DNA of 64,000 nt from Gammaproteobacteria bacterium (lineage in GTDB: Bacteria > Pseudomonadota > Gammaproteobacteria > JAJFKO01), in NCBI GenBank assembly GCA_028284465.1, contig JANQRR010000021.1, positions 34,876 to 98,875 on the forward strand. Direction: 5' to 3'. The notes below the pieces were generated by a model. It was given only the letters and a program-made list of their open reading frames with translations, was not told where the DNA came from and made no database searches. A program made the position numbers and the translations under genes. Shown here one piece after another: positions 5,261-48,136 of the stretch. The stretch's first letter is position 1. Each line of letters begins with the position of its first letter.

Positions 5261-5390
5261 TCGTCATCCCGATGACTCGAAGGAAACGAATACCATCATT
5301 GCGAAGAACTTTGTTCCGAAGCAATCCAGGATTTAACTTAGAAGTTTTCTGGATTGCTTCGTCATTGCACTCCTCGCAATGACGGACAGT
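5261..5390. repeat. palindromic intergenic repeat element, copy A (inverted pair of GTCATTGCGA(G/A)GA...CGAAGCAATCCAGA units)
   Basis: Left arm is cattgcgaagaactttgttccgaagcaatccagga. Right arm is tctggattgcttcgtcattgcactcctcgcaatgacgg, the reverse-complement unit. The element fills the tdh-stop to dnaE-start gap. Confidence 0.8.
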
Positions 5391-7608: not shown

Positions 7609-7784
7609 GATTTTCTCCTGCAGTTTAGTAATATCTAAAGGATGGGGTGGCAGAAGGATATGCTAATTTGCATCAAGTTACAAGGATAAAGTGTGAATAA
7701 TGATATAATGAAAAAATTAAGTTACCTTTTTGATATATTTTTTAAAAATTGTCGTTTGTAGTAGCCTATTAATTCGAGTTATGC

Positions 7785-7812
7785 TGGATCCCGCGGTCAA
7801 GCCACGGGATGA
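7785..7812. repeat. module-2 hairpin of the repeat family (ggatcccgcggtcaagccacgggatga), solo copy D
   Basis: Same 9-bp stem and 5-nt loop hairpin as at 40767-40796 and 53134-53160. It has one stem substitution (cgcgg to ccacg). Confidence 0.7.
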
Positions 7813-13989: not shown

Positions 13990-14143
13990 TTAATAACTTC
14001 GTCTTTTGGCTCAGAGCGTATTTATCGTCATTGCGAGGAACTTTGTTCCGAAGCAATCCAGAAACTGCAGTGGATTTCACGCTCAAGCCACGCAATAATA
14101 TCTCTGGATTGCTTCATCCCCTTCGGGTCCTCGCAATGACAAT
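13990..14143. repeat. palindromic intergenic repeat element, full copy B (unit, 40-nt core, inverted unit, plus terminal flank)
   Basis: Units are cgtcattgcgaggaactttgttccgaagcaatccaga and tctggattgcttcatccccttcgggtcctcgcaatgac. The core aactgcagtggatttcacgctcaagccacgcaataatatc is near-identical to the reverse-complement cores of copies F and G. The left flank is the reverse complement of the F/G right flank. Confidence 0.85.
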
Positions 14144-22611: not shown

Positions 22612-25600
22612 CTAGGTGCTAGGGCAAAAGAGATATTCATTTATATTGTTTCCATTAGGTTCTTCTGACTGTTTTGTGTCTGGAATTGGTATAGTGGTTC
22701 TGGGTTGTTTACCTTTTGTTCTAGCATCAAAAAATAAATGACCACAAGCAATAAATTTTTTAAGGTAAGTTTCAGATGTATATTTGGGGTTTTCTAAGGT
22801 TGTCCTAAAAGCTATAGACCCATCGAGAGTGGCAGCAAGTAGTTTCCAAGCATATATGATTTCTTCGATTTTTATATTTATCTCATTATTATTTGTGGTT
22901 GTTAAATTTTGAGAAAGTTTTTTTTGTAAGGTAGTAAATGAAGGAATATAGTTAGCACTGCGTGCTGGAGGAGCGCTGATCAAAGAATAAATATTATTCT
23001 GTAAATCAGTGCCATTTTTAGGTGCATCTTTTAGGATAATTTCGAGATTATTTTTTACATATTTTTGAATAAAGCCAAGATGAAGTGTAATAAACAATAC
23101 ATCAATAGTACGAGATTCTAATATAGGTTTGCCAATAAAATTACGGTGAAGGTTTTCTACTATATTATTAAAGTTTTTATTGGTAATGGTCAAAGGAACA
23201 TTGAGTAAATTATTAAATTCAATTATTTCTGATTGTTCAGTATCTTCCGGCCAAGAATAAGCGTTAGAACTAGAGAAGCTTGTTTCTGCCCAAGCTTTAT
23301 AATGCTCTATGCATTTTAAGAATTTTTTTGTATCTTTACCTGGTGGTAAATTTTGTTTTATCTTAGTGATCTGAGTACATAAAGCTAAAATTAAAGTGCA
23401 GAAATTCTTTTCTGCTTTTAGGATACCTCGTAGAACTAATACATGCGGTGGCCCTTTAGATGAATGAGGTTTATCAGCTGTTGCTTTCCTTTTCCCTTTT
23501 TTATCCATTTCAGTGTCGTCAAATAATGCTTTTTTTACTTTTGGGGTTACAGAACTTTTCTTTCGACGAGATACACGCTTATATGGTGTGCCAATCGAAC
23601 TCGTCATTTTTTTTAGTACCGGTGTAGTGGCGGTAGGATTTTTAGTTGGCGTTGTTGGTGTATGATCTGTTGCGCTGGTACTTAAAACTTGTTCAGATAA
23701 AATAGATTGAATTTGTGCTTGCATAGCCTGTATACTATCGCTAGCTTCACCTTGCCATTCTTGTAATGCCATAAGCTGCGTTAGTAAGAATCCACGTTCC
23801 TTTGCATGTGCTAATGATGTTTGTTGTTGTGTTCTAACTAGCTCAGACAGTAGCCTCACCTGTTGATCAACTGCGGCTAGGCCAGGAGTTATGACTCCAA
23901 TCCCAGGCTTAAGATCTGCTGTAAGCGTAGTTTTAACATGCTTCGTTATTAATAATTGATTTAATGTTTTAAACTCGCCATTGAGTAATTCTATTTTCTT
24001 TGTAAAAGGATTTTTTTTCCAAGTGCTGGTATTAGGTTTAAGTATTTCTGGTAAATAGTAATTTTCAATAGTATAAGATAAACTTTGATTCGGGCTTGGT
24101 GGGGCTGCAAGTTCTAATAATACAGCTTTGGTGCGTTCAAATAATTGATTACTTAATTCTTCGATGCTACCAGAGGCTACTTGAGCAAACATTTTATTGC
24201 AGCGTAAAATAAGCCGTAACGTTAATAATTTTGCAAATAAGCCAACCTCAGTACCTGTCATTGTTAATTCTGCTAAAGTATCACAAGATTGTTGAGTAAG
24301 ATATTGCCCACACATGCTGACAATATTGGAAGTTGCACTTATTATGGGAGCGCCTACAGGGGTGATCATGCCAGCAATTGTAAAGTACTTGTTTAATTTA
24401 CCAAATTTACTGCTAACTGAGACATCACCACTTTTAGCAACTCTGGCGGCTTCTAATTGTATTGATAATCGTTTGCAAAGTTTTATGTATAATTGATCCA
24501 AACTTTTGTTATTAAGCTGAGAAATTTTTTGTTCTAAAGTTTTAATGTCGATAGTAATTGAATGTGCATGGATTAATGTTTTAAGTTTATTGCAATCGAT
24601 CTCTGAAAGATTAGGGATTTTTGCTTCTAAGTTGTCGATATCAATGCGCAAAGCTTGCATTTGTTCATCAAAACTTGATGAACTGCTGCCAGTGGCTGAG
24701 TATTTATAATCGTCTAATATAAATTTTACTTGCTCTTCTATTTTTTCATAGGTTCTTGAGGTTTTACTTTGTGTTTGTGATAAATTTTCATCTTCTTTCA
24801 ACGCTGCTAAAGCATCATTGTTATTTATTGTTGTTTGAATATGTTTTAGTTCAGGAATTAATTGTTCCTTCTCTTTTGAACGAAAACCTAAAAACCCTGC
24901 TAAAGATTTGGCGCGTTTTTTAATAAATGCATTATGATTTTCAATTATATTAGTTATGCGAATTTGTGTGCCGTCAGCCTTGACAGTCGCATTACAATCT
25001 TGAAATTTAGTAATTTCTGAAATTAAGTCTTTGACGATAGGCAATACGCGGCCTTGCCTTTTTTCCATCGATTGTAGGGTATAAATAAAGTGGATCTTGC
25101 TTTCACCTGTAAGATGGCCTTTTTTAAAATGAAATAAAATCTTGCGTCCCAATCTAGCTGTGAGTTCTTCCATGTCTGGGATTTTATGTAGGGCATGAAA
25201 TACCAATACTAATTGACTGAGATCACTTTCATTAAGCACTTTATTAATAAAAATATTAACAATAGAGTTGATGTAGTTTTTATAAGTTGAACGAGTTGCA
25301 AAATGGTATTTTTTTAATTGTGGATAGCTTGCGATCACAGGTAAAACATAGTCACTCCATTTCAGTGGTGTGGCCTCTGCTTGTTCTCCATCTTCGGGGA
25401 ATCCAGTTAACAACTCTCGAGCCTTATTGCCTGCTACCCAAAATTTCCACCATGATCGTTTAATATCAAATAATTGCTTGCTAACTATGCCAATAATTGC
25501 AGTGATTTGTTGTGAATTTTCTTCAATAGTTTCCGCTAAACAATCTGGTAGCATAGGTGATGTGGCTTTTGCCGCTGCACCATTCTTTACGGTGTTTGGT

Positions 25601-26406
25601 AGCATAGGCGCTAAAATAACTCGAATGCGCAATAAAGCGCGCATTAAGTCAGTATTACTTTGCAAATTTGCCAAAGCAAGTTTAGGTGTTATTGTATTGT
25701 TACTTGTATCTTCTAGATTTCTTATGATTGTATCTAATTCTTCAGATGATCTATCCTTAAATTTTCCAATAATCGTATTTAATAGTGTTGTTAATTCATC
25801 AACTTTTATTTTTTTATTATTAATGGCAGTCGTGATCTCAGATAAAATAGAACTAGAAACAATAGAATATTGTTCATGATTTGAATTTTTTAATGCATAT
25901 GAACAATGCGCGCGTGCATAACGTAATAAAGACAGTTTTTCATTAAGACGCTTTACTGTCAGAGGGGATGCGCTGGCATTATAAAATTTTTCTAGCCGAA
26001 TTTGTTTTTGTTTTTCAGTTTTTTTATCGTTAAATAAAAATCTTAAAACATAATTGATTTTAGTTTGTAAAGTTTTAATGCTTTTTTGTAAATCTTTATC
26101 GGTAGTGCGCTTGAAATATTGGCATAATCTGTAATGATATTTTAAACAATATAATAATTCATGTGCTAAAGTTATCGCTTGTTCTTTATTATTATATGTA
26201 GAGCTTGACGGTGCCAATGATGTTCTATTCGGATATATTTCATCGTATTTTTTCTTAAAATAATTATAATCAACTTCAGTCAAAATATTATTATTAATTT
26301 GATCGATTGCATAAGCTAAAAATTCTTTAGCATATGTTACTTTTTGTTTATCATTTCTACGTTGGTCAAAAGCTTCGATTATTATAGTTAGATCACCTTT
26401 AGCCAC
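22612..26406 (-). CDS. large hypothetical protein (1264 aa), effector-like
   Basis: Intact ORF, N/K/I-rich, with no recognisable catalytic motif. It has an internal P/T-rich linker (HTPTTPTKNPTATTP) followed by a basic patch (KRVSRRKK...KKGKRK). No signal peptide. Confidence 0.6.
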   Translation of the reverse strand: MAKGDLTIIIEAFDQRRNDKQKVTYAKEFLAYAIDQINNNILTEVDYNYFKKKYDEIYPNRTSLAPSSSTYNNKEQAITLAHELLYCLKYHYRLCQYFKRTTDKDLQKSIKTLQTKINYVLRFLFNDKKTEKQKQIRLEKFYNASASPLTVKRLNEKLSLLRYARAHCSYALKNSNHEQYSIVSSSILSEITTAINNKKIKVDELTTLLNTIIGKFKDRSSEELDTIIRNLEDTSNNTITPKLALANLQSNTDLMRALLRIRVILAPMLPNTVKNGAAAKATSPMLPDCLAETIEENSQQITAIIGIVSKQLFDIKRSWWKFWVAGNKARELLTGFPEDGEQAEATPLKWSDYVLPVIASYPQLKKYHFATRSTYKNYINSIVNIFINKVLNESDLSQLVLVFHALHKIPDMEELTARLGRKILFHFKKGHLTGESKIHFIYTLQSMEKRQGRVLPIVKDLISEITKFQDCNATVKADGTQIRITNIIENHNAFIKKRAKSLAGFLGFRSKEKEQLIPELKHIQTTINNNDALAALKEDENLSQTQSKTSRTYEKIEEQVKFILDDYKYSATGSSSSSFDEQMQALRIDIDNLEAKIPNLSEIDCNKLKTLIHAHSITIDIKTLEQKISQLNNKSLDQLYIKLCKRLSIQLEAARVAKSGDVSVSSKFGKLNKYFTIAGMITPVGAPIISATSNIVSMCGQYLTQQSCDTLAELTMTGTEVGLFAKLLTLRLILRCNKMFAQVASGSIEELSNQLFERTKAVLLELAAPPSPNQSLSYTIENYYLPEILKPNTSTWKKNPFTKKIELLNGEFKTLNQLLITKHVKTTLTADLKPGIGVITPGLAAVDQQVRLLSELVRTQQQTSLAHAKERGFLLTQLMALQEWQGEASDSIQAMQAQIQSILSEQVLSTSATDHTPTTPTKNPTATTPVLKKMTSSIGTPYKRVSRRKKSSVTPKVKKALFDDTEMDKKGKRKATADKPHSSKGPPHVLVLRGILKAEKNFCTLILALCTQITKIKQNLPPGKDTKKFLKCIEHYKAWAETSFSSSNAYSWPEDTEQSEIIEFNNLLNVPLTITNKNFNNIVENLHRNFIGKPILESRTIDVLFITLHLGFIQKYVKNNLEIILKDAPKNGTDLQNNIYSLISAPPARSANYIPSFTTLQKKLSQNLTTTNNNEINIKIEEIIYAWKLLAATLDGSIAFRTTLENPKYTSETYLKKFIACGHLFFDARTKGKQPRTTIPIPDTKQSEEPNGNNINEYLFCPST

Positions 26407-40603: not shown

Positions 40604-40643
40604 TATTTTGCATTCTTATTTGAAGGTGCGAGATTCTTTAGTT

Positions 40644-40796
40644 CGTCATTGCGAGGAGTGTAACGACGAAGCAATCTAGGAACTTAATCTTTATAGACTT
40701 ACTGGATTGCTTCGCTGCGCTCGCAATGACGAAAGAAAAGTGTAACGACGAAACAATCTAGGACTGGATCCCGCGGTCAAGCCGCGGGATGACGGA
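40644..40796. repeat. palindromic intergenic repeat element, composite copy C (unit, inverted short unit, partial unit, module-2 hairpin)
   Basis: cgtcattgcgaggagtgtaacgacgaagcaatctagga; ctggattgcttcgctgcgctcgcaatgacg; gtgtaacgacgaaacaatctagga; ggatcccgcggtcaagccgcgggatgacgg. Confidence 0.85.
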
Positions 40797-40885
40797 TATC
40801 CATACCGGCACCAAAAACACCAACTCCCCCAAAAACTCCTAGGCAAGGTTATAGTTCTAAACCTTATAATAAGCCAAGTTCGTAA

Positions 40886-41689
40886 TTATTGATTTATCAC
40901 ACAACGAAACCCATAAGCATAATTTATTAATGGCATACCATGAAATTGTCGTTTCGCTTTAGGTCGATCATGAAAACGCATATACACACTACTGCCTTGA
41001 GGTGATTCAAGATAACTGTCACCACGTAATACTTTTTCTTTTCCAGTAGTTGGTCCTTGAGGATTGAGAAGTTGGGAATGATTATAATAGTTTAGATCAT
41101 ACCAATCATTAACCCATTCGTTAACATTGCCACTCATGTCATATAAGCCTAGTGGGTTAGGTGGGTATAAACCTACTTTTTGTGGGTGAGTTGAATAATT
41201 TGGATAGTTAACACCAATGTTAAGTTTGCCTGTGTTGGTTGCATAATTAACTTGTTTGCCTCGACTGCGAGCGGCATATTCCCATTGAGCTTCAGTTGGC
41301 AGATCAAAAGCTAAGCCAGTTTGTTGTCTGAGCCAGCGACAATACGCTTTCGCTTGTTGCCAGTCACTGGTGCCTACAGGAAAACCACCATGGCGCCAGT
41401 GCATAAATAATAACATTTGTTGGATAAGTGGTTTATGAGTCAATTTGCTATAAGTGTCATATTCTAAATAGGTTGTTGTATATTTATTAATGTAAAAATT
41501 ATCAAGGATAACGCGATGCTTGTAATTGTTACCACCATTGCCCATGATAAAACTACCACCTTTAACAAAAACCATATGTCGTAAAGTTTGTTGGATCAAC
41601 TGTGGTTTTGTTAGTGTTGCCGCTTTTGCACAAAGAATATGACTTTGAGTAATGAAAATAAATAGCGATATAAATAATTTATAGAGCAT
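40886..41689 (-). CDS. secreted FGE-sulfatase (SUMF1/formylglycine-generating enzyme) domain protein, probably non-catalytic
   Basis: N-terminal signal peptide. The family motifs RHGGFPVGTSDWQQAKAYCRWL, GLYDMSGNVNEWVNDWY and GFRCV are present, but the paired active-site cysteines are missing. The ATG abuts the upstream stop (TAAATG). Confidence 0.72.
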   Translation of the reverse strand: MLYKLFISLFIFITQSHILCAKAATLTKPQLIQQTLRHMVFVKGGSFIMGNGGNNYKHRVILDNFYINKYTTTYLEYDTYSKLTHKPLIQQMLLFMHWRHGGFPVGTSDWQQAKAYCRWLRQQTGLAFDLPTEAQWEYAARSRGKQVNYATNTGKLNIGVNYPNYSTHPQKVGLYPPNPLGLYDMSGNVNEWVNDWYDLNYYNHSQLLNPQGPTTGKEKVLRGDSYLESPQGSSVYMRFHDRPKAKRQFHGMPLINYAYGFRCVINQ

Positions 41690-43711
41690 TTAGGTGTGCC
41701 TTTTCACAGCGGTGTTAATGAGAGCTTTGTTGGGTAGCTTGACAATAAATTTATTTTTAGACCAATCTGCAAGAAAATGTTGTAATCGGTCTTCAGCGTG
41801 TTGTTGATCAGTGCGGTGGCCATCGATCGACATATACTTCAACACTTGATCATAGTCTTTAATGCTTTGCAAATAGTCTAATATCTTTAGAATGATTTGA
41901 CGTTGTGATTGCTCTATTGTGCTACTAGCTTTTTCAGTTAATAAATATAATAGCCGGCCCTTAACTTCAGGTGGAGTGAATTTTAGTTTATGGGCATTGC
42001 TACGCAGATGTTGAATTAATTGTTCAAGATATTGTTGACGTAATTGAGGAGAGTGCCAATTTTGTTTGAGGCCGTTATACCAAGTAATCGCTTGTTCAAT
42101 CCCAGTATGCGCAAGCTGATCTAATTGCACATTAAAAAATGCATAGAATGTGAGGATGTCGCTAAGTATATTAAAAGCATTCTTATCGATAAAGCCTAAA
42201 TAGCCAAAATTGTAATCTTTGATTTTGTGGTAAACGAACATGACAAATTCATTAAGATGATGCACATCAACAGTGTAGTCAATCACGCCATTGACACCAA
42301 AACCACAAACTATGCCAGCATTTAATCTAATTCTAAACTTGCCATTAGTAAACGTTATGTAAAAACCGGCTTGAGCGCCAAGCCCAAGATCACCTGCAAG
42401 CTGATAACCAACATTGGCAAATTCTTTAAAGTTTTTATTATCATCTTCTCGGGTTTCTGGATTATCCCAAGCAAGGTTGCCACAAGTTGCGCAACCCATT
42501 TCGATTCCAGCAAATGCATCTGCTTGAGCAGAAATGGTTTTATCAATGTCATTGATACCTTTTACAAATAATTTGCCCGCATTTTTGTTAGTTTTACCCA
42601 TGCTAAAGTGTAGCTTAGCATTGGCTAATGCACTGCAACCAGCAAACCCGGATAAGTTAAATTCAAATCCAGCTCGTAGATAGCCTAAATCTATGGTTCG
42701 CTGTCTATTCGCTGTGGGTAGCTGTACATGCCAACCTTGTTGACTTGGTAAATAAACCTGTGAAGTTAGGGTTGCTTGAGCTAAGGAAAATTTAGCAACA
42801 GCATCGATGCTAAATGCAACGTGACGGTGATGAGGGTAAAAGTTGCTACTTATCTCCGTGCCGAATAAATATCGCATCAAGCGAGCATCAGCGCTCATAT
42901 TAACGATTTGTTTTTTATGGCTATTGGTTATGTTTAATATATCACAGTGTTGTTGATAGAGTTCATCAGCATGAGCTTGCGTAATATTGCTCGCCCAAGT
43001 AAAAGCAGTTTCATGTTTAACTAGTTGGTGTTTTAATTTTTCAATATCAAGTTTATGATGAGTCATTATCTTTGCGCGATTTTCTATATCACGAGTTAAA
43101 GGATAACTGTGCAGTGAACTAGGCAGATCATCGTTTGGTAGATAAAGCCATTTTTTGCCGACAAAACTGATAATTTCAGTCAAAGAGTTACTATTTGGCC
43201 CATTTATTAAAGGTAAAATTAAAGTTTGTAATTGGTGTTTGCTAGATTTAATGTCTTGTTGGCGAGTGTTTCTTTTACTATTTATAGCATTAACAAGTTT
43301 GCTAATAGTCTGTTTAAGTGGCATGCCGGCATTCTCTATGGCTTGTTTATCACTGTGTTCAAGGGCATAAAAAGTTTGTGAATTAGTAATAAAAATAATG
43401 TCAATCAATATTTTTTTAACAGGATCGGTGTTTGTGAAATGATATTGTTTGTTCGGCTCTATTTGAGGATCATTGGCAGCGTTGATAATGTCACAGCTTG
43501 CTGAACTTTCCAAAAGAAATACTTCATAAGGTAAATTAAAACGCCAAGATTGATTATGTTCAGATCCAATAAGCTCACCAAACACATCGACAATATATTT
43601 TTTGTCGCCAGGCTTACTATCTTTGTAGTGATTAACAGCCCATTGTCTGCCAGTGGTTCTGTTAAGCTGTTGTAGTTTTTGCTGAATAACTGTTGGTAGT
43701 AGCTGATCCAT
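41690..43711 (-). CDS. hypothetical protein (673 aa) with a central beta-strand-rich Gly/Ala/Asn-rich domain
   Basis: Intact ORF without signal peptide. About 200 central residues alternate hydrophobic and polar residues with many G/N/A. It is flanked by helical regions and has no recognised motif. Confidence 0.55.
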   Translation of the reverse strand: MDQLLPTVIQQKLQQLNRTTGRQWAVNHYKDSKPGDKKYIVDVFGELIGSEHNQSWRFNLPYEVFLLESSASCDIINAANDPQIEPNKQYHFTNTDPVKKILIDIIFITNSQTFYALEHSDKQAIENAGMPLKQTISKLVNAINSKRNTRQQDIKSSKHQLQTLILPLINGPNSNSLTEIISFVGKKWLYLPNDDLPSSLHSYPLTRDIENRAKIMTHHKLDIEKLKHQLVKHETAFTWASNITQAHADELYQQHCDILNITNSHKKQIVNMSADARLMRYLFGTEISSNFYPHHRHVAFSIDAVAKFSLAQATLTSQVYLPSQQGWHVQLPTANRQRTIDLGYLRAGFEFNLSGFAGCSALANAKLHFSMGKTNKNAGKLFVKGINDIDKTISAQADAFAGIEMGCATCGNLAWDNPETREDDNKNFKEFANVGYQLAGDLGLGAQAGFYITFTNGKFRIRLNAGIVCGFGVNGVIDYTVDVHHLNEFVMFVYHKIKDYNFGYLGFIDKNAFNILSDILTFYAFFNVQLDQLAHTGIEQAITWYNGLKQNWHSPQLRQQYLEQLIQHLRSNAHKLKFTPPEVKGRLLYLLTEKASSTIEQSQRQIILKILDYLQSIKDYDQVLKYMSIDGHRTDQQHAEDRLQHFLADWSKNKFIVKLPNKALINTAVKRHT

Positions 43712-43799
43712 AGGAATTATTTTCTAATATAAATAATGGACCACGGTAACACAAAGGGTAGTGACAAAAATACTGCATACAGCTAAAGTTATTGTGATT

Positions 43800-44552
43800 T
43801 TATGCTGGCAATGTGCCCGTTACCGGCAACATAACGATACATGTGGTGCCTTTACCAACTTCACTATTTATGGTTAAGCTGCCATGCAAGAATTGACATA
43901 AACGTTGTGCAAGTAACAATCCTAAAGTAGGGTTACCGGTTTCGTTGGTGATCATCGGCGCAGGTAAATTAAATTGTGTGAGTATTTTAGCTAAATTGCC
44001 AGGATCAATGCCGCAGCCGGCATCACTAATTTTAAATTTAAGCATATAATCATTATCTTTACGTTCTTTTGAAACTTCTAAAATGATTTCGCCTTTGTTA
44101 GTAAATTGGCAAGCATTGCTTAATAAATTATTGAGGATCTTTTTGAATTTTGATAAATCAGTTTTAATCTTGCCAATATCATCCGGGCAAGTCAATTTAA
44201 ATTCATTTTGTTTGGCTGTTAACTGAGGTTGTAGTTTTTGCTGAATTTCTTGGATAATAGTGGCAACATCATATTCTTCAATGGCTGATTGCATAATGCC
44301 TGCATCAATTTTTGCAAGATCGATTAAGTTATTAATAAGTCGTAATAATAATATTCCTGATTTATGTATTCTTGCTAAAGGCTCAAGGTAGTTTTCATCA
44401 TTAGCATCTTTGGCATCTTCTAACATTAATTCGCTTAATCCAAGGATAGCATTTAACGGGGTACGTAATTCATGACCCATATCAGAAATAAATTTATTTT
44501 TTGCTTTGATAGTATCTTCAGCAGATAATTTGGATGGGCTTGTATTATTCAT
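43800..44552 (-). CDS. soluble orphan histidine kinase (HisKA + HATPase_c only, no sensor/TM, no cognate response regulator nearby)
   Basis: H-box DMGHELRTPLNAILG. N/G1/G2 boxes are present (NLLSNACQFT, ISDAGCGID, GTGLGL-like ...LGLLLAQ). There are no TM helices. AAGGTG SD before the ATG. Confidence 0.75.
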   Translation of the reverse strand: MNNTSPSKLSAEDTIKAKNKFISDMGHELRTPLNAILGLSELMLEDAKDANDENYLEPLARIHKSGILLLRLINNLIDLAKIDAGIMQSAIEEYDVATIIQEIQQKLQPQLTAKQNEFKLTCPDDIGKIKTDLSKFKKILNNLLSNACQFTNKGEIILEVSKERKDNDYMLKFKISDAGCGIDPGNLAKILTQFNLPAPMITNETGNPTLGLLLAQRLCQFLHGSLTINSEVGKGTTCIVMLPVTGTLPA

Positions 44553-44561
44553 ATTGTCACC

Positions 44562-45059
44562 TTAAGCCACTTTAGAATGTGCGCCATAGTCAATATCAAA
44601 TAAATGTTGAATTTCACCATTAAGCAAAGTCGTAATATCAGTTGGAGGAGATCTGTTAGAATCAACAATATTTTTTGTCAGTAACATGTCACGAATTCTA
44701 GCAAGAGTTTCTGCATCAGTTAAATTTTGTGAAACTGGATGATGGGTATTATTGTGATCGGCAGCTTGCTTGACTTGAATGATCCACTGTAATAATTGAT
44801 CAGGTGTTAGCGTTTGATGTTGCCAATGATTATGTAGTTTTGCTTGAGTTAGATAAAGCTCATAAGCGAGTGCAGCGGTAAATTGGGTAAATTGAGGATT
44901 ATGATTATCAGAATGTAAATGCCGATAAGCTTGTAGATAATGTTTCCATAAGGCTTTGATGGCTTTTGGTTTAAGTTGGCTTGCGGCGAGCATGTGGTGT
45001 CTAAATTTGAGGTTTTCGTGCTGATTATGGGCAATATCATGAAATATAAAGCTATCCAT
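44562..45059 (-). CDS. hypothetical histidine-rich protein (165 aa)
   Basis: Strong SD AAGGAGGAG. It is about 13% His (HNQHENLKFRHHM..., HNHWQHQ, HNNTHHP) and lies first in a 4-gene minus-strand cluster. Confidence 0.5.
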   Translation of the reverse strand: MDSFIFHDIAHNQHENLKFRHHMLAASQLKPKAIKALWKHYLQAYRHLHSDNHNPQFTQFTAALAYELYLTQAKLHNHWQHQTLTPDQLLQWIIQVKQAADHNNTHHPVSQNLTDAETLARIRDMLLTKNIVDSNRSPPTDITTLLNGEIQHLFDIDYGAHSKVA

Positions 45060-45137
45060 TACGTCTCCTCCTTCATTGTTTTGTTCAATTTATGAGCTTC
45101 ATATCTTAATATTAGCAGATCCTCTATAATCGACAGG

Positions 45138-47345
45138 ATGAGAGTCCTGAGAATAGCCATACCAACACCATTGCGCCGAGTTTTCGATTATTTACCGCCT
45201 AAAGGTAGCGAAAATCGTGAATTAATGCCGGGAATTCGGGTGCGAGTGCCATTTGGGCGCCGTGAAGTTGTTGGTATTTTGCTTGAGGTTGGCACTAACA
45301 GCCAATTACCCACTCACAAACTCAAATTTGCCAGCATTATCATCGATGATAAGCCCTTACTACCTAAGGCTTTATTTTCCTTAGTGTTATGGGCAGCCGA
45401 GTATTATGTCCACCCAATTGGTGAAGTATTATCTTCATCATTACCAAAATTATTAAGGCTAGGTGGAGCAGCAACTCTCAAACAACAATTAGGTTGGCGC
45501 CTGACAGCTGCGGGTAAGGCAGTTGAGATCACCAAGCTCGCGCGTGCACCGCGCCAATTTAATGCGTTGCGAGTACTGCGTGAACATCCTCAAGGGGTTA
45601 ATAGTCACGATTTAAAAGTTGCAAATGTTGCGATACCGGTAATGCGAGTGTTAGTGCAAAAAGCTTGGGTGGAGCAGTTTACAATAAAATCTGATTACCA
45701 AGATGCACAAGTTGCCACATTAGTTAAACCTAGCGAGCTTATTTTAAATACCGAGCAACAAAGTGTAGTTGCAAAAGTGTCAGCTGAGTTATCTCATTTT
45801 CAGACATGGTTACTGCACGGTGTTACTGGCAGTGGCAAAACCGAAATTTATTTACAAGTTATTGCTAAGGTTTTGCAACAAGGTAAACAAGCATTAGTGT
45901 TAGTGCCAGAAATAGCTTTAACACCACAAACGGTGGCACGTTTTCAAGAACGTTTTACAGTGCCAATTGTTGTATTTCATTCGCGGTTAACCGATCGTGA
46001 ACGGTTACAAGGTTGGTTACAAGCAAAGACTGGTCAAGCACGCATTGTTATTGGAACACGCTCAGCAGTATTTACTCCTTTATTAACACCAGGCGTCATC
46101 ATTATTGATGAAGAGCATGATTTATCATTTAAACAACAATCAGGGTTTCGCTATTGTGCACGTGATCTCGCAGTAGCACGCGCACGGTTAGAAAATATTC
46201 CAATCATGTTAGGTTCAGCAACACCTTCATTGGAAAGTTTATATAATGTCAAACGCAAGCGTTATCAATTATTGCGTTTACATAAACGTGCAGGCAAAGC
46301 GATTAAACCAACCTTTCATGTCGTTGATATTCGTAAACAACAATTACAACATGGTTTATCGGAGCATTTGATTGCTATGATGAAAAATCATTTGAGTCGC
46401 GATGGGCAAATATTATTATTTATTAATCGACGTGGCTTTGCTCCGGTATTATTTTGTCATGCTTGTGGCTGGGTGGCAGAATGTAAACGTTGCGATGCAA
46501 AATTAACATTACATTTTGAACCGCATGAATTGCGTTGCCATCATTGTGGTAATCGTCAAGTTGTAACTCGTGAATGTTTAGCTTGTAATGCGCAGCAAGT
46601 AATGCCATTGGGTTTTGGCACAGAACGTTTACAGCAAGCGATTACAACAATTTTTCCTAACATCAAAGTTGCACGTATTGATCGAGATTCAACAATGCGT
46701 AAAGGTGCAATGCAAAAATTATTAACCGATATTCATGCGGGCAAACACCAAATATTGATCGGCACGCAAATGTTAGCGAAAGGCCATCATTTTCCTAAGG
46801 TGACCTTAGTCGCGGTATTATATGCTGATGGTGGTTTATTAAGTGCAGATTTTCGTGGCACTGAACGTTTTGCACAATTATTGTTGCAAGTTGCTGGACG
46901 AGCTGGTCGTGCTGAGCAACCCGGAGAAGTATTAATTCAAACCCATCATCCACAACATCCTTTATTACAGCATTTATTAGCAGATGGTTATTTAAGTTTT
47001 GCTGATACAGTGTTGGCTGAACGTCAGCAAGCACAATTTCCGCCTTATCATTATTTGGCATTAATTCGCGTTGAAGCGTTAAATCAACAACAACCATTGG
47101 CATTTCTGCAACAAACACGGAGCATAGCCGATACTATGCATTCAGGCGATGTTAAAATATTAGGGCCGGTGCCTGCGCCGATGGAGCGATTAGCAGGTCG
47201 TTATCGTGCTCAATTATTATTGCAAGCAAGTAATAGACGTAGATTACAAAATATGTTACAACCATTAGCAGTTCGGCTTGAGCAATTAAAACAAAGTCGA
47301 CAAGTGCGTTGGTCGATTGATGTTGATCCATTGGAAATGGTATGA
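45138..47345 (+). CDS. priA: primosomal protein N' (replication restart helicase)
   Basis: Walker A GVTGSGKTE, DEEHD box and the Cys-rich zinc-binding region (CHACGW...CKRCD...CHHCG). Confidence 0.9.
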   Translation: MRVLRIAIPTPLRRVFDYLPPKGSENRELMPGIRVRVPFGRREVVGILLEVGTNSQLPTHKLKFASIIIDDKPLLPKALFSLVLWAAEYYVHPIGEVLSSSLPKLLRLGGAATLKQQLGWRLTAAGKAVEITKLARAPRQFNALRVLREHPQGVNSHDLKVANVAIPVMRVLVQKAWVEQFTIKSDYQDAQVATLVKPSELILNTEQQSVVAKVSAELSHFQTWLLHGVTGSGKTEIYLQVIAKVLQQGKQALVLVPEIALTPQTVARFQERFTVPIVVFHSRLTDRERLQGWLQAKTGQARIVIGTRSAVFTPLLTPGVIIIDEEHDLSFKQQSGFRYCARDLAVARARLENIPIMLGSATPSLESLYNVKRKRYQLLRLHKRAGKAIKPTFHVVDIRKQQLQHGLSEHLIAMMKNHLSRDGQILLFINRRGFAPVLFCHACGWVAECKRCDAKLTLHFEPHELRCHHCGNRQVVTRECLACNAQQVMPLGFGTERLQQAITTIFPNIKVARIDRDSTMRKGAMQKLLTDIHAGKHQILIGTQMLAKGHHFPKVTLVAVLYADGGLLSADFRGTERFAQLLLQVAGRAGRAEQPGEVLIQTHHPQHPLLQHLLADGYLSFADTVLAERQQAQFPPYHYLALIRVEALNQQQPLAFLQQTRSIADTMHSGDVKILGPVPAPMERLAGRYRAQLLLQASNRRRLQNMLQPLAVRLEQLKQSRQVRWSIDVDPLEMV

Positions 47346-48136
47346 AAATCAATTTTGTTTCAATATTAATTTTTTTGCTAAATATGCTAGTGCTAACGAA
47401 TAGTTACGCACATACAGGGCCTCTTAAAACAGGCCATGTTAGTTTAGCAGCTTCTGCCGATCTTGATTTCGAACATACTTTTCGCCAGCCAGCACCTTTT
47501 TTATTGTTTGCACCAACTTCACCAACACAACAAATTATCATCATTGATGATAGAGTTTTTAAGCAGCAATTCGGTTTGCCTTATGGCGGTTCGGTGCGCT
47601 TAGCCTATGCATTAACTTCTCACATTAGTTTGATCTTAGGTTATTCTTATCTTACTGCTAACAGACGAGTTGATAGAAGCACTAGCAATGGTGTAACACG
47701 AGAGTTAGAGTTAGAAGATTTTAAAAGTCATACCGTATTTATTGGTAGTTATTATTATTTCTCGCCAGTACTGAAAAAACTAAGCCCATATGCGGGCATT
47801 CGTGCTGGTTTAATGATTTATCCTAGAATCGACACGACTCTTGATCAGTTAAATGGGACTCCGGTGACGTTTGCTAATGGTAGGCAATCATCAACTTACT
47901 ATAAAGCTCAAATTGGTCCTTACGGGGCATTAATTATTGGGTTAACCTATCCACTAACAAAGAATTTGAATATTTATCTAGAATCCGGAGTTGAAGTAAA
48001 AGATGGCTTGCACGGTGCAGGGTTTATTCCAACAATCAGCCATCCATCAATACCCAATGTCACCAGTGGTAACATTGGTGACACGGGTCCTATATTGTCT
48101 TATCCGCTTAACCTTGGATTAAAATATTGTTTTTAG
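47342..48136 (+). CDS. putative outer-membrane beta-barrel protein
   Basis: Signal peptide (LVLTNSYAHT), amphipathic beta-strand periodicity and a C-terminal aromatic residue (..YCF). The start overlaps the priA stop (ATGA). Confidence 0.55.
   Translation: MKINFVSILIFLLNMLVLTNSYAHTGPLKTGHVSLAASADLDFEHTFRQPAPFLLFAPTSPTQQIIIIDDRVFKQQFGLPYGGSVRLAYALTSHISLILGYSYLTANRRVDRSTSNGVTRELELEDFKSHTVFIGSYYYFSPVLKKLSPYAGIRAGLMIYPRIDTTLDQLNGTPVTFANGRQSSTYYKAQIGPYGALIIGLTYPLTKNLNIYLESGVEVKDGLHGAGFIPTISHPSIPNVTSGNIGDTGPILSYPLNLGLKYCF

Follow-up and report, generated by a model that had tools for sequence, protein, structure and literature searches.

A probable type VI secretion effector–immunity gene pair with an FGE-fold partner protein, next to a sensor-less histidine kinase gene in a gammaproteobacterial genome

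Results

Genes at the locus

The stretch of DNA analysed here (64,000 nt; positions 34,876 to 98,875 of contig JANQRR010000021.1, assembly GCA_028284465.1 of a gammaproteobacterium; hereafter, the window) carries, between its positions 40886 and 45059, four minus-strand open reading frames (ORFs), which we call g1, g2, g3 and g4 in the order in which they lie from 45059 downward. A preliminary description had taken them for one four-gene system of an unrecognised kind, with a role in signalling or sensing, or a toxin-like or defence role, among the options. Our analysis indicates that the region probably consists of two units: a pair, g3–g4, of the kind that encodes an effector and its immunity protein in type VI secretion systems (T6SSs), and a pair, g1–g2, that appears to be specific to this lineage. 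The coordinates and lengths of all four ORFs were reproduced exactly (Table 1), and frame 0 scores as coding for each of them when judged by the codon usage of the window itself. The 88 nt between g2 and g3 and the TAAATG junction, at which the TAA of g3 directly abuts the ATG of g4 (0 nt), also stood as first described; the g1 stop codon is separated from the ATG of g2 by 9 nt rather than by 10 nt.

g3 and its protein family

No credible match to g3 was found in Pfam, NCBIfam, PADLOC or among the sequences of the PDB, and word-indexed searches, whether with g3 or with a profile of 48 sequences, returned the query itself only. The latter result was misleading, because an exhaustive HMMER search with g3 uncovered a large family, with 433 representatives (each standing for a cluster at 50% identity) at E ≤ 1e-3, 274 at ≤ 1e-10 and 62 at ≤ 1e-30. 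The matches span residues ~100–650 of g3 and mostly lie at the C-terminal side of longer proteins, and none of them aligns before about residue 74–75. In databases the family members go by the names "hypothetical" or "LysM protein" only. The nearly invariant residues of the family (R280, P322, G358, F400, G402, W415, G443, G470, G472, G475, P581 and A606) are all retained in g3, which turns out to be not a housekeeping protein, as would have spoken against the preliminary description, but a member of a recognisable family.

The domains with which this module is combined in other proteins point to its route of delivery. Among 48 g3 homologs scanned with Pfam, 13 carry a VgrG, PAAR, PAAR-like or MIX delivery domain: VgrG domains (Phage_GPD, Phage_base_V, Gp5_trimer_C, DUF2345, T6SS_Vgr) occur in seven, PAAR in four, DUF4280 in one and VasX_N (MIX) in one, and the toxin module sits C-terminal to the VgrG, PAAR, DUF4280 or MIX domain. 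Peptidoglycan-binding domains were found in the same set (OmpA, 5/48; PG_binding_1, 2/48; LysM, 1/48). This fusion pattern is that of a polymorphic T6SS effector with a toxin domain that works in the periplasm of the target cell.

In g3 itself there is no signal peptide and no transmembrane segment, the former as first described, and no determinant of delivery could be recognised: neither a domain fused to the toxin module nor a vgrG, PAAR or adaptor gene in the 64-kb window. The C-terminal sequence NTAVKRHT (window positions 41693–41716) fits a motif found throughout the family, which reads NTPVKQ, DTPVEQ or NTHVRN in T6SS-linked homologs, and is therefore a feature of the family rather than a secretion signal specific to the host.

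The g3–g4 pair in other genomes

To follow the gene neighbourhood of the family we used 12 distinct loci with a g3 homolog: those in a Thiodiazotropha metagenome-assembled genome (MAG), a SAR324 MAG and a UBA3588 contig, which came from a genome locus scan with a three-sequence alignment, seven in metagenome or MAG contigs, and one each in Klebsiella pneumoniae and Pseudoalteromonas piscicida. In 12/12 of them a g4 homolog directly adjoins the g3 homolog, with 37–46% identity over nearly the full length and a match to PF03781, the family of the formylglycine-generating enzyme (FGE). The g4 homolog lies downstream on the same strand in eight loci and is convergent in the remaining four, and all 13 g4 homologs whose N-termini were inspected begin with a signal peptide or a lipoprotein peptide (L-x-G/A-C). 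Homologs of g1 and g2 were found by tblastn at none of the 12 loci. Sequence comparison thus establishes g3 as a member of a toxin family that partners FGE-like putative immunity proteins, and the conserved unit is the two genes g3–g4, not the four.

Half of the loci (6/12) bear T6SS markers, i.e., a T6SS cluster, or vgrG, PAAR or DUF4123 genes beside the pair. In the Thiodiazotropha MAG (L002) a VgrG–toxin fusion is followed by the FGE gene, and in the SAR324 MAG a Tox-PAAR-like gene, the effector gene and the FGE gene follow one another. A 650-aa g3 homolog that, like g3, has no delivery domain and that belongs to the size class of g3 lies inside a complete TssB/TssC/Hcp/TssE/VgrG cluster and is followed by an FGE gene, and at another locus a DUF4123 adaptor gene, the effector gene and a convergent FGE gene are situated within the gidA–mnmE housekeeping region. 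The K. pneumoniae locus includes a VgrG gene, another effector–immunity set and a g3-like ORF truncated to 396 aa, which is followed by a tandem array of four g4 homologs (L013, 8965–10155 and 10506–14610). The last gene of this array is apparently frameshifted; with each of the other three, which are intact, g4 shares 37% identity. A degraded second FGE-like copy in SAR324 (L004, 12834–13389) and, on a metagenome contig, an additional g3-like gene that follows the immunity gene (L005, 6107–7078) were also seen, and we take these three loci as signs of module turnover.

Two further gene groups accompany members of the family. In the locus within the T6SS cluster of L007 (7952–10019 and 12981–16087) the pair is flanked by five paralogous secreted proteins of ~335 aa without a Pfam domain, two of which are 49–51% identical to each other; these could constitute a further family of immunity or accessory proteins. 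Small proteins of 104 and 129 aa (L006, 891–1205; L017, 9610–9999; L019, 9063–10004) are encoded directly upstream of effectors that have no delivery domain. Neither the 104-aa nor the 129-aa protein is recognised by Pfam; the former shows similarity to the C-terminal region of a DUF4123 adaptor (blastp, 1e-7), and these proteins may represent a class of mini-adaptors.

g4, an FGE-fold protein without the catalytic cysteines

As noted in the preliminary description, g4 has a signal peptide and an FGE fold from which the catalytic cysteine pair is missing. Its sequence RGDSYLESPQGSS aligns to RGGSYLC..C of the Streptomyces coelicolor FGE, with the pair replaced: LRGDSYLE of g4 stands opposite LRGGSYLC, and the second cysteine is likewise absent. 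The copper-binding pair of the genuine FGE (SUMF1) is accordingly not found in g4. The similarity of g4 to the FGE proteins encoded next to effectors, those of the K. pneumoniae array included, amounts to 169–228 bits over nearly the full length, as against 65 bits for a partial match (residues 103–228) to the genuine FGE and 47 bits to PvdO. By analogy with characterised proteins of this kind (see Discussion), g4 would be a non-catalytic FGE-fold protein that protects by binding g3, in agreement with the binding module first proposed.

Predicted structure of g3

An AlphaFold model of g3 was built from 131 family sequences (mean predicted local distance difference test score (pLDDT), 71.5; predicted template-modelling score, 0.59). 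In this model residues 1–100 are poorly defined (pLDDT mostly <55), residues 100–210 form a confident alpha/beta part, and the C-terminal domain is helical. The central region rich in G, A and N that had been described as amphipathic and beta-stranded could be confirmed, as its beta hydrophobic moment is 1.18, compared with 0.78 ± 0.08 in shuffled sequences (z = 4.8), and long paired strands were predicted at residues 270–292, 297–321, 339–364 and 396–416. Comparison of the model with PDB folds gave no significant match; the best neighbours, which were weak and non-significant, included astrotactin-2 and C8-alpha (MACPF), outer-membrane beta-barrels, and the pore states of pneumolysin, perforin-2 and the aegerolysin partner.

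The early view of a beta-rich region reminiscent of pore-forming domains holds in that this region could insert into membranes. Because the core consists of amphipathic beta hairpins, membrane insertion is preferred, and our best guess, based on the model, is that g3 damages the envelope through insertion or permeabilisation by this core; the cell wall is a possible alternative target. Since the immunity proteins are secreted and family members are fused to peptidoglycan-binding domains, the periplasm is a well-supported prediction for the site of g3 action.

g1 and g2

The 165-aa g1 protein is rich in histidine, although less so than the preliminary description had it (17/165 residues, 10.3%, instead of about 13%); its length and the strong Shine–Dalgarno sequence were as reported. 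No match to it was found in Pfam, NCBIfam or the PDB, and no homolog in a word-indexed search; PADLOC gave one weak match (E = 0.0046, 14 bits), and the AlphaFold model made from the single sequence was unusable (pLDDT 42). We considered whether g1 might be a T6SS adaptor or chaperone and rejected this, as the comparison with the small protein whose gene precedes that of the closest g3 homolog gave a blastp E-value of 0.67 and an hhalign probability of 0.6%.

g2 is, as first described, a histidine kinase reduced to HisKA and HATPase domains. It has no sensor or other input domain, no receiver or Hpt domain and no hydrophobic segment. An H-box (GHELRTPLN), an N-box and a G1 box (DAGCGI, of the DxGxG type) can be recognised, together with a somewhat degenerate G2 box, and a functional kinase core is plausible from these motifs. 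In NCBIfam g2 comes closest to the kinase cores of hybrid kinases (LuxQ, TorS, ArcB, BarA, LetS), with all scores far below the cut-offs. A tblastn search of the window with two receiver domains found no receiver domain or response regulator, in line with the preliminary description. The nearest relatives of g2 in a metagenome scan are kinases with 25–32% identity in unrelated contexts, and homologs of g1, g3 and g4 were not found at their loci. Two-component genes were noticed in the neighbourhood of two g3 homologs: one for a single-domain response regulator (L006, 110–523) two genes upstream of P0006, the closest homolog, and one for a receiver–HD-GYP protein (L017, 18324–19352) two genes downstream of P0026. 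By a rough estimate, the occurrence of such genes near 3/13 toxin-family loci, the window included, is close to chance.

Between g1 and g2, which share a reading frame, lie only TAA and GGT GAC AAT (44552–44564), and read-through would give a protein of 418 aa. The possibility that they are one gene split by a nonsense codon is not supported: the shared frame, which has a chance of one in three, is probably a coincidence because g2 has a ribosome-binding site of its own, AAGGTGA. Because no terminator is predicted in the gap between g2 and g3, co-transcription of g1–g2 with g3–g4 is possible. To judge from the comparisons made here, g1–g2 would be a lineage-specific pair and not a conserved part of the g3–g4 module. 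The pair could regulate something, with no comparative support for a functional link to the toxin.

Surroundings of the cluster

The locus lies in an ordinary chromosomal setting, in which the g3–g4 module is found between the housekeeping genes djlA and priA. The neighbours on the g4 side are trmB, waaA and djlA; on the opposite side are priA, which is divergent (45138–47345) and flanks the g1 end of the cluster, an outer-membrane-protein (OMP)-like ORF, sodC and smr, and farther away in the window there are dnaE, acrB and a large NAD-GDH gene. The OMP-like ORF (47342–48136, plus strand, 264 aa) has a signal peptide, is beta-rich, overlaps the priA stop codon by 4 nt and has no Pfam match. 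The GC content of the four genes is slightly below average (z from −0.8 to −1.6); a compositional island can be dismissed, as g1–g4 are only mildly AT-rich, like other accessory ORFs of the window.

The repeats and the divergent priA that had been said to flank the cluster are there, and the repeats, which are of the repetitive extragenic palindromic (REP)-like type, occur throughout the window rather than at this cluster in particular. Other copies lie at 5291–5329, 7784–7812, 14016–14115, 53084–53165, 54200–54352 and 58479–58631. The core of the intergenic element is GTCATTGCGAGG...CGAAGCAATCCAG, a second unit is CTGGATCCCGCGGTCAAGCCGCGGGATGA, and the arrangements are often composite. A search of the whole window with Rfam matched no family, the REP-like elements included. 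Large ORFs without a Pfam match were noticed at 22612–26406 (minus strand, 1264 aa), 49630–53037 (plus strand, 1135 aa) and 29649–31097 (minus strand, 482 aa); the first two also had no match among PDB sequences and have a markedly low GC content (z about −1.9). These ORFs could be lineage-specific secreted effectors.

Table 1. Features of the g1–g4 locus; positions are those of the window
Feature	Position	Strand	Basis or remark
g1, 165 aa, His-rich, predicted all-helical	44562..45059	-	ORF coding in frame 0
g1 Shine–Dalgarno sequence AAGGAGGAG	45065..45073	-	Strong; 5 nt before ATG
g2, 250 aa, sensor-less histidine kinase core	43800..44552	-	Pfam HisKA and HATPase_c only
g2 HisKA, residues 17–85	44298–44504	-	Pfam, 5.6e-18
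g2 HATPase_c, residues 132–245	43818–44159	-	Pfam, 4.6e-17
g2–g3 spacer, 88 nt	43712..43799	-	Minus strand: no predicted terminator or promoter
g3, 673 aa, predicted T6SS-type effector (toxin)	41690..43711	-	HMMER family, domain fusions, homolog neighbourhoods
g3 residues 1–~95, lineage-specific N-terminal region	43427..43711	-	No recognised T6SS trafficking domain
g3 residues ~100–650, conserved toxin module of the family	41762..43414	-	HMMER match ranges, family alignments
g3 residues 270–481, A/G/N-rich amphipathic beta-hairpin core	42269..42904	-	Beta moment, AlphaFold
g3 residues 483–660, helical C-terminal domain	41732..42265	-	AlphaFold pLDDT mostly >90; conserved FVYHK and PE.KGRLL motifs
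g4, 267 aa, predicted secreted FGE-fold immunity protein (Tsi3-type)	40886..41689	-	PF03781, homologs beside g3 homologs
g4 signal peptide, residues 1–23, AKA/A cleavage site	41621..41689	-	Sequence; maximum Kyte–Doolittle value 1.63 at residues 5–23
g4 FGE-sulfatase domain, residues 36–252	40934..41584	-	PF03781, E = 1.4e-36
REP-like palindromic repeats downstream of g4	40634..40797	.	Families D1, D2, D3 and D7; not part of the module

Discussion

Taken together, our results favour, with a probability of roughly 0.85, a region made up of two units, of which g3–g4 is a T6SS-style antibacterial effector–immunity pair of the kind of Tse3–Tsi3 of Acinetobacter baumannii, and g1–g2 is a lineage-specific pair. 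The toxin-like role that the preliminary description had listed among its options fits this assignment, and the idea of an unrecognised system gives way to a further instance of a widespread T6SS toxin with an FGE-fold immunity protein, of a kind already published. Immunity to the antibacterial T6SS effector Tse3 is provided by Tsi3, a protein whose FGE domain is devoid of the catalytic cysteines, and this immunity tracks with the binding of Tse3 and not with catalysis (Lopez et al. 2021, bioRxiv 10.1101/2021.05.21.445229; J Bacteriol 203:e00281-21). In this interpretation, a T6SS encoded elsewhere in the genome would load g3, as a cargo-type toxin, onto a VgrG or PAAR spike for injection into the periplasm of Gram-negative neighbours, where it would damage the envelope. 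The g4 protein, translated from the TAAATG junction, would pass through Sec to the periplasm of the producer and neutralise g3 arriving from sister cells by binding it.

Several observations weigh against this interpretation. T6SS core genes, like VgrG, PAAR and adaptor genes, are absent from the 64-kb window, and g3 has no recognisable trafficking domain, so that its delivery by a T6SS in the present host is a presumption. The genome appears Legionellales-like, judging by its GC content of 39%, its REP-like palindromes and its large orphan ORFs, and within the Legionellaceae the T6SS is restricted to few clades. The tie of g3 to A. baumannii Tse3 is based on published descriptions, and the evidence for a membrane target is the beta periodicity of the core together with structural resemblances that are not significant. 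Finally, the tight layout on one strand with g1–g2, with no terminator in between, leaves room for a functional link between the two pairs.

Some of these observations would be accommodated if the genome had no T6SS and g3–g4 were an orphan or relict module, acquired horizontally and since deprived of its delivery context, with g4 kept as a protection against the Tse3-like toxins of competitors, or g3 repurposed for another secretion system or for regulated self-lysis. The lack of T6SS-related genes in the window, the unique N-terminus of g3, the position between djlA and priA and the confinement of the T6SS to certain Legionellaceae clades would all be expected of such a module, and the truncated homolog with four FGE genes in K. 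pneumoniae is an example of an orphan toxin fragment with an immunity array. Moreover, although a T6SS is present in 98.2% of the genomes that encode Tsi3 (defined by RPS-BLAST E < 1e-50 against a Tsi3 profile), about 1.8% are without one (Lopez et al. 2021). However, g3 is full length, has normal codon usage and keeps every nearly invariant residue, and cargo effectors that have no trafficking domain and are encoded far from the T6SS cluster are nothing unusual, as exemplified by the homologs P0037 and P0026 in housekeeping contexts. We regard an orphan module as unlikely.

A single signalling–toxin system of four genes, in which g2 acts on g3 and g4 by control or modification, with g1 as its partner for sensing, phosphotransfer or metal binding, would account for the common strand, the gaps of 9, 88 and 0 nt without a predicted terminator in the longest of them, the slightly low GC content shared by all four genes and the two-component genes near P0006 and P0026. 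Nevertheless, such a system is quite improbable: that the four genes never occur together elsewhere, which would weaken it, was found to hold for g1 and g2, though not for g3 and g4, which are adjacent at 12/12 loci. The nearest kinase relatives have none of the other three genes nearby, g1 has no detectable homologs and bears no relation to the adaptor-like small proteins encoded ahead of other effector genes, no receiver domain is encoded in the window, and two-component genes near the family are about as frequent as expected by chance. We see still less reason to expect a composite of these ideas, i.e., a Tse3/Tsi3-type pair uncoupled from the T6SS in a Legionellales-like intracellular bacterium that may lack a T6SS, and placed in one operon with a dedicated g2 and g1, the toxin taking another route, such as a type IV system, or serving in a kinase-controlled switch for self-lysis or competition. 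Hardly credible is a working enzyme of the FGE, PvdO or EgtB type in g4, with g3 as its substrate or as an unrelated envelope protein. The match of g4 to PF03781 is strong, and there are partial matches to the PvdO, EgtB and GldK models; yet all the NCBIfam scores for enzyme families are far below the cut-offs, the catalytic cysteine pair is absent, the similarity is much higher, and more complete, to effector-adjacent FGE proteins than to the genuine FGE, and published tests point to binding as the mode of action of Tsi3 proteins (Lopez et al. 2021).

The toxin domain that is paired with FGE-like proteins is large and widespread, with its 433 clusters at 50% identity, yet Pfam, NCBIfam and PADLOC have no model of it; the alignment and the model of g3 delimit the domain and identify the invariant residues of the family. 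In word-indexed searches g3 had the appearance of an ORFan even though its family exists, which calls for caution in sequence scans. If the host is indeed Legionellales-like, the pair implies either a rare T6SS-positive lineage or an orphan immunity/toxin module.

Comparison with known systems

The kinase gene next to the module has a partial parallel. Soluble histidine kinases without a sensor can pair with a separately encoded sensor, as do H-NOX-associated kinases, and g2 is similar to these in being a HisKA–HATPase core preceded, at a distance of 9 nt, by a small gene, which might by analogy play the part of the partner. In contrast to the genes of such systems, g1 shows no H-NOX, Hpt or other family signal, and there is no cognate receiver nearby. 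The PADLOC models of anti-phage systems matched neither g2 nor g3 nor g4.

Among T6SS-delivered envelope toxins, the pore-forming effectors VasX and Tke5 (BTH_I2691) share with g3 the membrane target that we favour as a guess, and one member of the g3 family bears the VasX_N/MIX marker at its N-terminus. However, VasX and Tke5 are helical, colicin-like toxins whose immunity proteins are embedded in the membrane, whereas g3 has a beta-hairpin core and g4 is a soluble secreted protein. The BTH_I2691/VasX models of Pfam and NCBIfam did not match g3, and we rejected its assignment to these effectors on this ground and on that of the different type of immunity protein. As for its predicted architecture, the g3 model shares long amphipathic beta hairpins with beta pore-forming toxins and with MACPF and cholesterol-dependent cytolysin proteins.

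The closest counterpart of the module is Tse3–Tsi3 of A. baumannii ATCC 17978. The muramidase of Pseudomonas aeruginosa that is also called Tse3 is unrelated to the A. baumannii protein and shares only its name. A. baumannii Tse3 is a protein of 1001 aa, as against 673 aa for g3, with no conserved domain and of unknown function (Lewis et al. 2019), and a GxSxG motif reported for it is absent from g3. The g3–g4 module also differs in having a single immunity gene on the same strand with no vgrG, PAAR or adaptor gene nearby, in the kinase gene directly upstream of g3, and in its AT-rich, probably Legionellales-like host. Tsi3 homologs are widespread, are often arrayed (four being the commonest number) or convergent to the effector gene, and lie beside vgrG, PAAR and DUF4123 genes, and one of K. 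pneumoniae was included in the experiments (Lopez et al. 2021). The homologs of g3–g4 described here repeat this picture, with VgrG, PAAR and DUF4123 genes beside them, in arrays, including the four-gene array of K. pneumoniae, or convergent. Finally, g4, like Tsi3, combines an FGE-sulfatase fold with the absence of the catalytic cysteines, and its gene, like that of Tsi3, adjoins a large effector gene whose product contains no Pfam domain.

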